From: a virus
Strand: one strand, 5' to 3'
Virus record (IMG/VR): IMGVR_UViG_3300045988_129625
Span: 1-64,000 of that record
Length of the DNA: 64,000 nt
Both the position numbers and the translations under genes were made by a program. Positions 3,347 through 54,643 of this stretch are shown here, one piece after another. How positions within the stretch are numbered: position 1 is the stretch's first letter; the number at the start of each line of letters is the position of its first letter. Under the pieces are notes generated by a model. It was not told where the DNA came from. It did not search any database and saw nothing but the letters and a program-made list of their open reading frames with translations.

Positions 3347-3673
3347 TGGGTGATTATACACCATTTTACATCAAAGATGAAAAATGATATACATTTGTAC
3401 GAAGCATCATACCGGGTATCACCAATACCCTCTACCGGTTGCTCAAAAGTGAGATCGCCGGATTCTTTTACTAAAAACGTTTTTGATTTTACCCATCTTA
3501 CGTTTTCAAGATGGAACCTTATATCAAAGACCTCTTTTGCCCAACCGTCTTGTCCGAAACGAGGGACTATGTGATTCGATTGAGTGAAACAAAGTTAGAA
3601 AAGAAAAATATGAAATTAAATAACATCCGTATGTTTTATAACATACGTTTAGTGTAAAATATATAATCACCCT

Positions 3674-5019: not shown

Positions 5020-5403
5020 ATGAACAGAATAACAAAAATAAGAGAAGAAATAGGAGGAAAACAGGTTGATTTGACCTTTTACGGGCGCTTTTGCAGCCTT
5101 ATCGAAGGTGATAGGAAGATAATACTAAGGGCGATAAAAAGCGGTCATAAAAAAGGCGTAATCGGAGCCATTCAGCCTGGGAGACATGATAGAATTTGGA
5201 CCACATGGTCTATTGCTTTTGATGATTTGAAGGTAGGGGATACGGTAGAGTTCAGTACATCTGGAAAATACAATCCCGGATTTCATGCTACGGAAAAGTA
5301 TGTAGGGTGTGTAGAATGGATAAGGGGATCGGAATGTGCGATAAAAACCGGCAATGGAATAGCAGTAGTATTAATTAAACATGTAGAAAGGGTGGTAAAA
5401 TAA
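5020..5403 (+). CDS. hypothetical protein (127 aa)
   Basis: ORF in array. Confidence 0.5.
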   Translation: MNRITKIREEIGGKQVDLTFYGRFCSLIEGDRKIILRAIKSGHKKGVIGAIQPGRHDRIWTTWSIAFDDLKVGDTVEFSTSGKYNPGFHATEKYVGCVEWIRGSECAIKTGNGIAVVLIKHVERVVK

Positions 5404-14236: not shown

Positions 14237-14899
14237 ATGAACAATTTTGTAATAGATACTCCAGATAATTTCTGGCAAATAAGATGGCTTGACAAGTATA
14301 TGGAGGGCCACAAAGGGTTCATAGCTGGTGGATGTTTTAAGAATATCCTTTCCGGAGAAAAGGTAAAAGATATTGATATTTTCTTTGAAAGCGAAAGCGA
14401 TTTTCAGGAAGCTGTTGATTTGTTCAATGATGAAAAACATCAGAAAGAAGGATGGAAATTTAAGTATAGGAATGAGAAGGTATGCGCATTCCAGAAAGAG
14501 GGAGAAAAGGTATGGGTAGAGTTCATAGAGTCAGAGTTCGGAAAGCCAGAAGAGATTCTCAGGAGCTTCGACTTTACTGTGGCAAAAATGGCCTACTATA
14601 AGGAGCCTAAATACGAAGAAAAGGAAGATGATTATTTTCCATTCTCATCTGCAAGTATAGTAGCATACGAGTACAAACTACTCTATCATGAGAAATTCTT
14701 CGAACATCTTCATATGAAGAGGCTGGTTATTGACGAAAATATCCCTTTTCCAGTAAGTACATGGGAAAGGTCATATAAGTATAAGGGGTATGGTTACAAT
14801 ATGTGTAGGGAGACAAAGAAAAAACTTCTACGGGCTCTTAAAGGTGTAAATGTAGAGGAGGAAGATGTATCTTTGTACACTACTGGAGGATGGGATTAA
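14237..14899 (+). CDS. Pol-beta superfamily nucleotidyltransferase with CCA-adding/poly(A)-polymerase-like head motif
   Basis: IAGGCFKNILSGEKVKDIDIFF matches GGxVRDxLLGxxxxDxDxx (G-[GS], 11 residues, D-x-D) of class II tRNA nucleotidyltransferases; the same spacing also fits the OAS/CD-NTase GS..D.D pattern. Confidence 0.55.
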   Translation: MNNFVIDTPDNFWQIRWLDKYMEGHKGFIAGGCFKNILSGEKVKDIDIFFESESDFQEAVDLFNDEKHQKEGWKFKYRNEKVCAFQKEGEKVWVEFIESEFGKPEEILRSFDFTVAKMAYYKEPKYEEKEDDYFPFSSASIVAYEYKLLYHEKFFEHLHMKRLVIDENIPFPVSTWERSYKYKGYGYNMCRETKKKLLRALKGVNVEEEDVSLYTTGGWD

Positions 14900-51888: not shown

Positions 51889-52656
51889 TCAGGTCAGATC
51901 CTTCCAGTTTATTTTTTCGCCGAGGTAATCTTGCACGGCAAGCCATCTTAATAGTTCCCATTTTCCAAGACCGTTTCTAAACATAAACTTAGCTTCTTCA
52001 AGAAATGATCGAAGATTCTTTTCGGCGATGATGATTCCATTCTGTTCTAACTTTTTAGCAATATCACGAATCAACCACATATTATTATGGTCTACCTTCC
52101 TAAAAGACTCGGCAAATTCCACATCAGGCTTATGCTCTTCTATTGTTTTCAAGGCTTGTTGCTTCTCTGCCTCTGCCTGCGACTTTTCAGCTATAGCTCT
52201 CTGAGCGGCTTCATACTGATCAGCCCAGGCCCTTGCTGCATCTGCTGGATTAGAAAAATCAGGAACCAAAATACCCTTTCCGCCTAAACTTGTTTTGTAT
52301 TCTCCTGTTTTACGAATAGAAGGAAGAACCTCAGATGTTATCCATCGTTTAAATCTCTTAGCAGATTCTAATTTCGAAGATAATATAAGAGAATATAAAC
52401 CAGATTCATTAATGATTCTTATATTATCTATGTATCTGGTTTTCAATAGGGATTGATTCACGCCCCATTGATTATCAGATACTTGCAAAAGTGTAGAATC
52501 ATCATCATCCACATGTCTTTTTACCGCATCTTTAGCATTTATATATCCAAGAGATTTTGCCACGTCTGACGCCACAAACCATACATCACCTTTTGGATCT
52601 ACAATAATTCTAAGCTCTCCAAAATCTGAACTTTCAAAAACAGAAACTTTATCCAT
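51889..52656 (-). CDS. Bro-N domain antirepressor-like protein (Bro-N + KilA-C/ANT-like C-terminus)
   Basis: MDKVSVFESSDFGELRIIVDPKGDVWFVASDVAKSLGYINAKDAVKRHVDDDD matches the Bro-N consensus. Confidence 0.75.
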   Translation of the reverse strand: MDKVSVFESSDFGELRIIVDPKGDVWFVASDVAKSLGYINAKDAVKRHVDDDDSTLLQVSDNQWGVNQSLLKTRYIDNIRIINESGLYSLILSSKLESAKRFKRWITSEVLPSIRKTGEYKTSLGGKGILVPDFSNPADAARAWADQYEAAQRAIAEKSQAEAEKQQALKTIEEHKPDVEFAESFRKVDHNNMWLIRDIAKKLEQNGIIIAEKNLRSFLEEAKFMFRNGLGKWELLRWLAVQDYLGEKINWKDLT

Positions 52657-52689
52657 AATAAAAAAAATAGGCCCAAAAGAGAATGTCAG

Positions 52690-54260
52690 ATCCCACTATG
52701 ACAAACCCTAATGAGCCAAAAATATCTTTCAACATTAAACAACCAGAGGTGGGATCTCGTTGTTCATTGTTTCTGAAACAAAGATAGGAACAGAATCTTA
52801 AATAGCAAATATTTTAATACTTTTTAAAACGATCAGGGCCCGCATCACTGCGAACCCTGATCTACATTAATCTAAACTAATACCATGAAAAACTTAAATC
52901 TAAAAACTAAAGAACACACAAATGTAGGTGATTATATATCACCTTACGCCAGAAGCGTAAAGTGATACACATTTATACGGAAATCCGTACTGGGTTCCAC
53001 CAAAACCCTCTACCTTCTGGTAACATCGTTACATCAAAGGATTCTTTTTCTGATTTTCTAATGATGTTAAAAGCACCATTAATGTCAGCATTGATGATCT
53101 TACCAAACGAGGTTTTAAACAATCCCCGTTTGGTTCTTCTTCCTTTGTAAGATTCATGTTTGCAAATCCGTTCATTATCCAAAAAGCTACATTTTGAAGT
53201 ATAAGATTCTTCAACAATCTTAACATTAATACCTTCTAATGTTGCTTTATAAGATATCATTGAGATAAACATATTAAAAGGAATAGATACAAAGTTCTGA
53301 TTATTTCGTTTTCCAATATTGATCTCTTGTTTCCAGCATTTGTTATGACCGATTATGATCGTGTTAATACCATTGGAAACTACGTGATTAACCAATATCC
53401 TACTTGCCTTATGAAGATAATCTTTGATCTTATTATTCCTTTTGTTAGTTAATAACCTGATTTGTTTTGAAGTATGTTTATTATCTTTTAATTTAGATTT
53501 TAAATATGAAAGTCTTTTGTTATAATACTGGTTGATAGACTTCAGTGGTCTACCATTGATGATAAAACAAGAACCGTTATTAGAAACACAAGATGCTAAA
53601 TTATCTAATCCTATGTCGATACCAAGATAAGATCCATTATATGACATAAGATCCTTTTCCTTCTTATTGTAAACTATTTCAAGAATAATGTACCCATTCT
53701 TAGGAATGAATCTAAGTTGTTGGATATTTTGTTTATTGGTTCTTGTTGTAAAGGAAAACTGTTTTGGTAACTTAACAATGCCTTGTTTTATCCATTTTTG
53801 AGAAAAAGCATTTGTTGCAAAAACAGCAGGAAACAAACCATCCTTGTTGAGATACTTTGGCATTCTTACTTCCTCATAATACTCACCTCTATTCTTTTTA
53901 TTTAAAAGATTGAAGAACGATTTAAAGTTTCTATCAACCATCATCAACACTTGTTGAGCAACCGGTACTGGTAAAGCACGATAGTCGACATCGTTTTCTG
54001 TTTTTAGTTTCTTTTCAAGAGAATAGTAGTTTAGGTATTTGTATTTTACAGTATTATCATCTTTATATTGAAAATAATGTTGCCTAACAACATACAATCC
54101 TTTGTTGTATAAGTTTTTACACTTATGCAACAGGTCATAAAGTTCATTGTAATAGACAGAACTTGGCTTGATCGTATGTTGTTCAACTAATCTCATGGCA
54201 CAAATGTATGAAAATGTATGCTTTTCACAAAGAATCTGTATCCTATTCTTTTGTGTGATT
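52690..54260 (-). mobile_element. IS605-family TnpB-only element or its relic; ends approximate
   Basis: About 300 bp non-coding 3' of tnpB with three perfect hairpins (GATCAGGG..CCCTGATC, GGTGAT-tatata-ATCACC, CTTACGC-cagaa-GCGTAAG) and ~450 bp non-coding on the 5' side. Confidence 0.35.
52973..54196 (-). CDS. tnpB: divergent TnpB-like protein lacking the canonical RuvC-II Glu and the CxxC zinc finger
   Basis: RuvC-I YLGIDIGLDNLA; the YIFIEDLNIEGMK position of the other TnpB reads TIIIGHNKCWKQE; YTSKCSFLDNERICKHE replaces CxxC..CxxC; RuvC-III INADINGAFNIIRK retained. Confidence 0.8.
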   Translation of the reverse strand: MRLVEQHTIKPSSVYYNELYDLLHKCKNLYNKGLYVVRQHYFQYKDDNTVKYKYLNYYSLEKKLKTENDVDYRALPVPVAQQVLMMVDRNFKSFFNLLNKKNRGEYYEEVRMPKYLNKDGLFPAVFATNAFSQKWIKQGIVKLPKQFSFTTRTNKQNIQQLRFIPKNGYIILEIVYNKKEKDLMSYNGSYLGIDIGLDNLASCVSNNGSCFIINGRPLKSINQYYNKRLSYLKSKLKDNKHTSKQIRLLTNKRNNKIKDYLHKASRILVNHVVSNGINTIIIGHNKCWKQEINIGKRNNQNFVSIPFNMFISMISYKATLEGINVKIVEESYTSKCSFLDNERICKHESYKGRRTKRGLFKTSFGKIINADINGAFNIIRKSEKESFDVTMLPEGRGFWWNPVRISV

Positions 54261-54643
54261 CAAGACATGGGATATAGTTCTGATACTTAATCCGGTTTGA
54301 TTTTGTATCAGATTATAAATATAAGATTTTGAAACTACAGTTCTTAATTGACCTAAATCATTCATAATGTTTTTATACATAAGATGAATGCTGTTGTTAC
54401 GTTTGATGGTACTGATTCTCATTTCCTACTGTTATTAGTTACGTTCGGTTCTTACTTTTTCTTTATTTCCATAATCCCTTCCTGAAACTAATATTGCAAA
54501 CTTAATAAAAATAATTCATAAACAATGAAAATCTAACTTTTCTTGTATGTTGTTGATATACGTGCATATGCAAGAAAAGTGAGACTTTCACAAGCCCCAC
54601 TTCCCAAATTGTAATTATAAAAAACTATATATGTGTACAAAAA

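Follow-up and report, generated by a model that had tools for sequence, protein, structure and literature searches.

A TnpB protein without zinc finger and with a proposed alternative RuvC-II glutamate, carried by an apparently IS1595-type element in a crAss-like phage

The viral DNA analysed here, referred to below as the window, is a stretch of 64,000 nucleotides (positions 1 to 64,000 of IMG/VR record IMGVR_UViG_3300045988_129625). Its portion from 40 kb to 64 kb shows some 94% identity with csAssE-Sib (OR575929.1), a phage of the human gut which belongs to the epsilon crAss-like group (Epsilonunovirus; PMC11054128). Our subject is a tnpB open reading frame (ORF), confirmed at 52973..54196 on the minus strand and encoding 407 amino acids, together with the mobile element which carries it. 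The insertion is intergenic, between the stop codon (54243) of a 59-residue helix-turn-helix (HTH)-like ORF and a Bro-N/KilAC gene (51889-52656). The window also encodes a canonical TnpB, at 32808-33983, with a match to IS200_TnpB (8.8e-63); the authors of csAssE-Sib recorded two TnpB genes with a mutual identity of only 18% (PMC11054128). The original prediction for the 407-residue protein, made from the letters of the window, noted the loss of the canonical RuvC-II glutamate and of the zinc finger and offered two explanations: a nuclease-dead, TldR-like repressor, or an enzyme with a relocated glutamate.

The protein matches Pfam OrfB_IS605 (2.8e-22) and Cas12f1-like_TNB (1.2e-12), and the NCBIfam model guided_TnpB (1.5e-55) over residues 9-381. 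Its AlphaFold2 model (predicted local distance difference test, pLDDT, of 87.2; sole low-confidence loop, residues 293-299) has Cas12f, ISDra2 TnpB and ApmFanzor2 as top Foldseek matches, with E values down to 1e-16 for Cas12f/TnpB. A single-sequence phmmer search of the Protein Data Bank (PDB) gave no match and a profile of homologues was needed. Sequence and fold fit the WED-REC-RuvC(-TNB) architecture of TnpB and OMEGA endonucleases, and we place the protein in the class variously called Ealt, TnpB2 or RuvC-II-rearranged, in a form without zinc finger. The family is large, with at least 7,983 homologue matches, and at least 583 viral contigs encode close relatives. The ratio of nonsynonymous to synonymous substitution rates (dN/dS) of the window gene to 76 intact relatives has a median of 0.085. 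Distant homologues (n = 32) come from Cyanobacteria, Bacteroidota, Firmicutes, Saccharibacteria and archaea. Of 80 distant genomic relatives, 27 have the gene for an IS607 serine recombinase (NF033518, 2.5e-53) directly upstream, which associates the protein lineage with IS607, although the window element itself is not an IS607. Two homologues deserve a remark. One protein of 507 residues (P0038) is 94% identical to the window TnpB over two-thirds of its length and also carries the HNH-type Pfam domains PF01844, PF14279 and PF14239, through fusion or through the insertion of an HNH gene within tnpB. Another, labelled 'Parabacteroides goldsteinii' (P0031), is encoded on a contig whose 4 kb hold two tnpB genes, and is uninformative as to the host.

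The RuvC columns were assigned by HMMER alignment of a 35-homologue profile to AsCas12f (8j1j_A), and residue conservation was assessed in 98 full-length close homologues and 32 distant genomic homologues, 130 in total. D194, the RuvC-I catalytic aspartate of the IDIGLD motif (codon 53615..53617, on the minus strand like all codons given here), aligns with AsCas12f D225, and D371, the RuvC-III catalytic aspartate of NADIN (53084..53086), with AsCas12f D401. The canonical RuvC-II glutamate of AsCas12f lies in 'IQMEDL' and is E324 in native numbering, the 8j1j_A chain being offset by +10. Its column is occupied by G283 of the window protein ('liiGkn'; 53348..53350), H284 falls in the column of the next aspartate, and no glutamate of the window TnpB falls in the RuvC-II column of this alignment. 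The manual reading that E-D had become G-H at RuvC-II, with RuvC-I (IDIGLD) and RuvC-III (NADING) retained, is therefore borne out by the profile.

Four of these positions, D194, G283, D371 and a glutamate further downstream, E330 (53207..53209), are invariant in 98/98 close and 32/32 distant homologues, and RuvC-I reads D-[IL]-G in all of them. E330 belongs to EESYTSK; counting from G283 it comes 47 residues later, and YTS and C336 follow it at distances of two and six residues. In the model, strand beta-4 (279-283) ends at G283 and strand beta-5 (324-328) is followed at once by E329 and E330, the former (53210-53212) being about 93% conserved; D194 stands at the end of strand 190-195 and the RuvC-III helix begins at 370. 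We propose that E330 is an alternative RuvC-II glutamate, moved from beta-4 to the end of beta-5. D194, E330 and D371 would then form a complete D-E-D triad in rearranged form, the topology of the modelled strands suggesting that the three carboxylates come close together.

Such rearrangements have been described. Loss of the canonical glutamate (to Gly or Pro) is offset by a conserved glutamate about 45 residues downstream (Jiang et al. 2023, PMC10530073), and the alternative residue is catalytic in Fanzor2, E467A abolishing cleavage by ApmFanzor; a rearranged TnpB, TvTnpB, shows TAM-specific DNA cleavage (TAM, target-adjacent motif) without collateral activity (PMC10530073). Yoon et al. (2023, PMC10711439) place an 'Ealt' residue just upstream of the zinc-finger motif in the IS607 lineage. 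Altae-Tran et al. (2023, PMC10691335) describe RIIr clades in which the glutamate is replaced by Gly and the alternative glutamate lies on beta-5 as in RuvX; they give NADxN as the mark of the derived TnpB clade, and report that the zinc finger is lost in some branches and that some rearranged branches are enriched in viruses. Since E330 stands at the published alternative-glutamate position and the triad is invariant, we read the enzyme as active: it is most likely a working nuclease rather than a dead one.

As to the zinc finger, the first CxxC column of AsCas12f corresponds to C336-S-F-L-D in the window protein, the second pair is without counterpart, and no CxxC pair occurs in the window TnpB or in any of the 130 homologues. 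Among the close homologues the C336 column holds C (78), S (10), A (9) or T (1), the C345 column C (38), K (23), D (17), S (9) or others, and the H347 column H (59), K (23) or others. The original prediction that the CxxC...CxxC motif was reduced to C..C.H is right about the loss and about the presence of C336, C345 and H347; since these residues are not conserved in the family, however, they do not constitute a substitute or degenerate zinc site. The shifted glutamate and the replacement of the zinc finger by a short metal-free hairpin are fixed traits of the family. The profile alignment thus returns neither a glutamate in the RuvC-II column nor an intact zinc-binding site, and the peculiarity is real, yet it is a trait of a family already described.

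The tnpB gene is the single cargo of an element common in epsilon crAss-like phages, whose full-length copies measure 1,347 bp. Element copies were compared at the 80 best viral loci of the at least 583, which are 87-97% identical. The full-length left end is 78 nt long and begins GGTGATTATATAC / GGTGATTATATACAACTTTACACC, the right end is 46 nt long and finishes GGTGTAAAGTGGTATATAATCACC, and the two form terminal inverted repeats (TIRs) of 24-28 bp, the family TIR reading GGTGATTATATACNACTTTACACC. Among 42 junction pairs, 8-bp target-site duplications (TSDs) are perfect in 11 and carry one mismatch in a further 3. The flanks of the 80 loci fall into about 31 upstream and about 41 downstream groups, indicating at least 31-41 distinct sites. 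This is not IS200/IS605 anatomy, given the 24-28-bp TIRs, the 8-bp TSDs and the lack of tnpA in the element, nor is it that of IS607, as there is no TnpA inside the element. Ends of IS605/IS607 style, with a short left end and a TAM at the left flank, were considered and rejected because the full-length copies show TIRs and TSDs.

The TIR GGTGATTATATACNACTTTACAC also bounds two longer elements in crAss-like phage contigs, L182 (3,510 bp) and L194 (2,830 bp), which encode a 307-residue IS1595-family transposase (4290-5213 in L182; NF033547, 7e-57; PF12762, 3e-42). This transposase occurs at no fewer than 237 viral loci, several on contigs which also hold the TnpB element, and its elements show three perfect 8-bp duplications; IS1595 family members make 8-bp TSDs (PMC10045372). 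Because it shares its TIRs and its 8-bp duplications with IS1595 transposons, the TnpB element is best read as a non-autonomous IS1595-type element moved in trans by the IS1595 DDE transposase, the pairing of enzyme and substrate being deduced from these shared features.

Several variants of these elements were observed. Beside the transposase, L182 (1973-5482) and L194 (9431-12260) carry variable cargo, namely a weak outer membrane protein (OMP) beta-barrel-like ORF, a DUF5640-like, lipoprotein-like ORF and an unassigned ORF. A 272-bp derivative resembling a miniature inverted-repeat transposable element (MITE) (L198, 1853-2124) retains both TIRs, about 100 nt of the omega RNA region (see below) and the first ~70 nt of the ORF, the remainder of the element being deleted; it could still supply guide RNA. 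Many copies share one flank and differ in the other (L017/L021/L030/L043; L022/L023/L027; L004/L010/L012). The left flank GCCAATTTTTAACATCTTTA, for example, occurs with four different right flanks, and such copies are without target duplications. From such mixed flanks it would seem that phage genomes are rearranged by recombination between copies, or by adjacent deletions or inversions. One in-frame tnpB stop codon is present in each of four copies (L006, L029, L032 and L059) among the 80 closest, so that some copies are decaying. A TIR search around distant relatives gave two possible TIR-bounded solo copies (L100 and L083), with no TSD as proof. Finally, the window holds at 3349-3436 an 88-nt remnant, 73% identical to the element right end plus the last ~40 nt of tnpB and oriented alike. 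With no tnpB ORF attached, it occupies a gap of 330 nt between ORFs and may be what remains of a second, decayed insertion, or else an isolated fragment of the right end and omega RNA.

The copy in the window extends over about 52927-54208. Its right end (52927-52972) is intact, with the right TIR, GGTGATTATATATCACCTTACGCC on the plus strand, at 52927..52950; this repeat, which matches GGTGATTATATACNACTTTACACC, the TIR that also bounds the IS1595-family elements, is the only one left, as the left TIR (~66 nt) is missing. Outside the ORF the element comprises the 46 nt beyond the stop codon (52927-52972) and merely 4-14 nt before the start codon. The hairpin-rich flanks of about 300 and 450 bp in the original prediction are mostly phage DNA, and the longer of them (447 nt) holds the 59-residue HTH-like ORF (54243-54422).

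The majority empty allele reads ...GAAAAGCATACATTTTCA|TACATTTGTGTGTTCTTTAG (116 of at least 118 guide-target instances on related phage contigs). Relative to it, the window has 1,272 extra nt plus a 10-nt direct repeat, TACATTTGTG in element orientation and CACAAATGTA on the plus strand, by which the two flanks overlap. The eight element-proximal nt of the right copy (52917..52926) equal the family TSD in size. The left copy (54199..54208) is part of 14 nt, TTCATACATTTGTG (54199-54212), which the phage target has in common with the interior of the normal left end; in full-length copies this end runs for 78 nt from GGTGATTATATAC. The left junction falls within these shared 14 nt, and only 54197-54200 (TGCC before ATG) is unambiguous left-end sequence. 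The window copy may have arisen either from a normal insertion followed by a repeat-mediated deletion or from a one-ended event resolved by microhomology, and, short of its left inverted repeat, it can no longer transpose. Among the matches listed, the locus is occupied only in the window and in two other contigs (L003 and L005), that is, in 3 of about 120 related contigs, and all three are without the left TIR. Because so few are occupied there, the adjacency of tnpB to the Bro gene is incidental.

Another comparison for the insertion, with csAssE-Sib as the empty site (implying a 7-nt repeat and a 63-bp deletion of the left end), was rejected because csAssE-Sib is without one 10-nt unit, TACATTTTCA, present in at least 116 other contigs. 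The target locus is indeed polymorphic for this tandem unit, csAssE-Sib having one copy and most phages two (CATACATTTT CATACATTTG; L002 ~14396-14402 compared with L168 ~5020-5056). Here the sequence TACATTTG fits TAnnTTTG, the Bacteroidota -7 promoter consensus; every copy also has it shortly before the start codon of tnpB, and both may be promoters. The neighbouring 59-residue ORF (54243-54422, minus strand) has a weak Trp_repressor match (E = 0.09). It stops at a TAG in the window where most sister phages have CAG and an ORF seven codons longer, and its counterpart in csAssE-Sib is annotated as a 74-residue 'lactose operon repressor'.

The 3′ part of the element has the properties expected of an omega RNA, or right-end element RNA (reRNA). 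Its last 274 nt fold with a z score of -6.0. Over codons 377-407 of 70 unique coding sequences the synonymous codon entropy is 0.23 bits, down from 0.52 (p = 6e-4), a sign that the final ~95 nt of the ORF are subject to a second constraint. The final ~115 nt contain four hairpins, with 98.2% of cells paired, and six pairs, mostly of the 15-bp terminal hairpin, are changed on both sides, a number reached by 0/500 shuffles and by no slid control. From this structure, the synonymous constraint and analogy, we infer a scaffold at about 52927-53068 on the minus strand, made up of the last ~95 nt of the ORF and the 46-nt right end, with predicted hairpins at ~53013-53040, 52992-53008, 52975-52990 and 52933-52971. 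The predicted guide, by analogy with TnpB and Fanzor reRNAs (PMC10711439), would consist of the first 20 nt of phage DNA past the right end, 5′-TACATTTGTGTGTTCTTTAG-3′ (52926-52907, minus strand). No Rfam family matches the omega RNA region, the only matches being weak, sub-threshold and outside the element. One of these, to the Bacteroidetes FopS small RNA (52823-52895, minus strand; 33.6 bits against a gathering score of 56, E = 0.01), may be due to chance; a weaker GibS match overlaps it, in phage intergenic DNA downstream of the guide and upstream of the Bro gene. The interval earlier marked out for an omega RNA search, 52657-52972, contains only the 46 nt of the element and the guide. The rest is phage intergenic DNA, also present in csAssE-Sib.

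An earlier suggestion that the guide might be aimed at phage or host promoters finds no echo in the phage sequences. Within the window the predicted guide matches nothing but its own flank, and in the phage contigs read, to which this search was confined without host genomes, it matches only the homologous locus of sister phages. Guide positions 2-20 are found as an exact 19-mer in at least 118 instances on related phage contigs, 116 of them at the same locus, unoccupied, and 2 at the occupied locus (among the matches listed).

The sites of insertion carry a directional signature. At 15 sites with validated duplications the three bases preceding the duplication are T (13/15), A or T (14/15) and A (14/15), and the first duplicated base is T in 15/15; no mirror motif is seen beyond the right end at these sites. 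TWAT occurs at 22 of 38 independent left flanks of TnpB elements and at 6 of 50 IS1595-type ends without TnpB (Fisher p = 6.5e-6; background 1.9%). The TWA|T position lies 5′ of the guide-matching sequence in the unoccupied site, which is precisely the place required of a TAM, the occupied site having ...CACC there. On the strength of these insertion sites, TWA|T is a candidate TAM. Position +13 of the guide-matching flank is also a T in 13 of the 15 validated sites, which may be chance in AT-rich DNA.

The three copies which share the truncated end also differ in age from their surroundings. Comparison of the window with L003/L005 gives 96.4% identity for the element and a synonymous divergence (dS) of 0.13 for tnpB, against 1.10-1.15 for the adjacent phage ORF, and downstream homology stops after ~90 nt; dN/dS among the three copies is 0.11-0.13. 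An element much younger than its flanks, in a copy unable to transpose, appears to have passed from one phage background to another, diverged one, for which homing or recombination would offer a route.

The reading we favour, and consider probable as a whole, is that of an active, zinc-finger-less TnpB of the Ealt type carried by an IS1595-type element, with an omega RNA at its 3′ end and a role in homing. The IS1595 DDE transposase would act in trans on the TIRs and generate the 8-bp target duplications. The strand which encodes tnpB would also encode the guide RNA, its scaffold overlapping the 3′ end of the ORF and its guide being the adjoining 20 nt of phage DNA. TnpB would cut unoccupied copies of its own site, identified by the TAM and the guide match, and recombination would then copy the element in, providing homing or retention. 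The window copy would spread by homing or by recombination between co-infecting phages, with its gene kept under purifying selection.

A number of observations weigh against this reading. The tblastn search found no IS1595 transposase in the 64-kb window. The covariation in the omega RNA comes from close sequences (mean identity 91%) and from a structure derived from the same alignment, and the terminal hairpin overlaps the TIR, which is itself constrained as a transposase site. The TWA|T signature may stem from an asymmetric target preference of the transposase, and the window site itself reads TCA|T, one position off consensus. Mosaic recombination of the flanks could produce the age gap without any nuclease, and the occupation of only 3 of about 120 contigs (among the matches listed) is weak for efficient drive.

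A bolder version of the favoured reading has this zinc-free Ealt TnpB, its IS607 recombinase exchanged for IS1595 ends, working in co-infecting crAss-like phages as a gene drive guided by RNA. New sites would be seeded by the IS1595 transposase, and of these only those beside TWA|T and in the right orientation would be propagated by TnpB-triggered homing. This would leave the directional motif at 22 of 38 sites and would let a copy short of one TIR spread between phages whose flanking genes differ by a dS of about 1.1. We put it forward tentatively, and rate it as rather more doubtful than not.

Among the alternatives, the one which best survives is that the window copy is a stranded passenger, a relic without its left TIR whose TnpB is of no use and whose apparent youth reflects ordinary phage mosaic recombination. 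The missing left TIR and the low occupancy at the locus fit this, as do the premature stops in 4 of 80 related copies and the 88-nt related remnant at 3349-3436. The ORF is nevertheless intact, with a dN/dS of 0.11-0.13 even among the three truncated-end copies; the omega RNA region and the right end are also intact, and the guide target is perfectly conserved in sister phages. We therefore regard this explanation as unlikely.

Somewhat less probable still is an active nuclease or DNA binder with another main role, either biasing IS1595 transposition to TAM-adjacent sites or serving as a phage-versus-phage weapon which degrades insertion-free competitors. The enrichment of TWA|T is directional and specific to TnpB-bearing elements, and the element seems to be rearranged often, since the left and right flanks of many copies stem from different sites; in phages, nuclease genes are reported at the boundaries of genetic exchange (PMC10448857). 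A guide derived from the old flank, on the other hand, cannot pre-select a new site, and the enrichment is equally explained if TAM-adjacent insertions survive through homing.

A nuclease-dead, TldR-like repressor with a guide on a phage or host promoter, for instance in a Bro/antirepressor circuit, is in our judgement very improbable. Some features speak for it: like TldRs, the window TnpB is phage-encoded and without the canonical RuvC-II glutamate and the zinc finger, it has regulatory neighbours in the Bro-N/KilAC gene and the small HTH-like ORF, its copy is minus one transposon end, and phage-borne TldRs exist. The hallmarks of TldRs are, however, an uncompensated loss of acidic residues, frequent C-terminal truncation, the absence of transposon ends and a guide which matches the TAM-flanked promoter of a conserved partner or target gene (Wiegand et al., 10.1101/2023.11.30.569447), and no TldR-defining feature applies here. 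D194, E330 and D371 are invariant at experimentally validated rearranged positions, and the protein is of full length, with RuvC-III and the C-terminal strand intact. The same gene, 87-97% identical, occurs in TIR/TSD-bounded copies at dozens of unrelated sites and so belongs to a mobile family without conserved partner gene, standing beside Bro in only 3 of about 120 related contigs (among the matches listed), and its predicted guide has no match in the window other than its own site.

The original prediction was thus right in the kind of answer it gave as its second explanation, a relocated glutamate, but its candidate, E291 of WKQE (53324..53326), can hardly be the residue: it lies eight residues after G283 within the strongly conserved G-x-N-K-x-W-K-Q, yet its column is variable (E65/D25/N8 in close and E20/D5/N5/S1/G1 in distant homologues which keep all else), Asn, Ser and Gly cannot replace a catalytic carboxylate, and it borders the model's only disordered loop (293-299), published rearranged sites being about 45 residues downstream on beta-5, where the invariant glutamate is E330.

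The window TnpB is an ordinary member of a very large and already described class, and the novelty of its combined features is modest: no zinc finger, IS1595-type ends, crAss-like phage hosts and a TAM-like insertion signature. The absence of the RuvC-II glutamate and of the zinc finger is not, in this case, the sign of a domesticated, dead TnpB; the zinc-free alternative-glutamate family spans bacteria, archaea and phages, and thousands of such genes will be misclassified by scans which rely on the canonical column alone to call a TnpB 'inactive'. As a compact (407 residues), natural and zinc-free nuclease of the Ealt type, with a predicted RNA scaffold of ~140 nt and TWA(T) as candidate TAM, the window TnpB may lend itself to trials as an editor, and also to tests of the lack of collateral activity reported for rearranged sites. 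Finally, the population-genomic signature seen here, in which persisting insertions have a directional motif and an immobile copy is younger than its flanks, might open TnpB homing in phages to direct tests.

These features may be set against those of known systems. With the IS605-type TnpB of ISDra2 (PDB 8exa, 8h1j) the window protein shares the fold and domain order, the predicted omega RNA over the 3′ end of the ORF, a guide taken from the flank and a presumed role in homing; ISDra2 differs in its RuvC-II glutamate on beta-4, its C4 zinc finger, its Y1 TnpA, its hairpin ends and the absence of a TSD. DDE-associated and solo TnpBs moved in trans are described in general terms by Altae-Tran et al. 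(2023, PMC10691335), and those with inverted repeats have the tnpB 3′ end within 250 bp of the transposon end, as here. The partner in our case would be an IS1595-family transposase in phage genomes. No paper tying IS1595 to TnpB in this way was found in the literature searched, which did not extend to the supplement of PMC10691335, where IS1595 may be listed.

The closest relatives in terms of the active site are the rearranged prokaryotic proteins known as TnpB2 (TvTnpB), Ealt or RIIr, which like the window TnpB have a Gly in the glutamate column and the alternative glutamate about 45-47 residues further on, before YTS. RuvC-II-rearranged TnpBs also have in common with it the NADxN motif, a length of ~400 residues, the link to IS607 recombinases in the wider family, and mobility. 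The window family differs in having no C4 zinc finger, which the published Ealt pattern ExxxxxxCxxC...CxxC requires and which the major RIIr clades keep, and the window member in being carried by a TIR/TSD element and not by IS605 or IS607.

Fanzor2 and Fanzor2* are the IS607-derived TnpB homologues of eukaryotes and giant viruses, some of which were captured by cut-and-paste TIR/TSD transposons. The alternative-glutamate site is common to them and the window TnpB (ApmFz2, PDB 9b0l; Foldseek E = 3e-12, TM score 0.63). The latter is neither a pro-Fanzor nor a Fanzor: its RuvC-I reads D-I-G and not the D-P-G of pro-Fanzors, it has no zinc finger, its host is a crAss-like phage of gut bacteria, as opposed to a eukaryote, a giant virus or a cyanobacterium with a pro-Fanzor, and its transposon is of IS1595 type, with an 8-bp TSD. 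Fanzor2* is a counterpart in organization, an IS607-lineage nuclease on a DDE-type TIR/TSD transposon whose TIR lies in the 3′ scaffold of the guide RNA (PMC10711439), and the element described here would be its parallel in a prokaryotic virus, with a DDE (IS1595) transposon as the captor of a TnpB of IS607 lineage.

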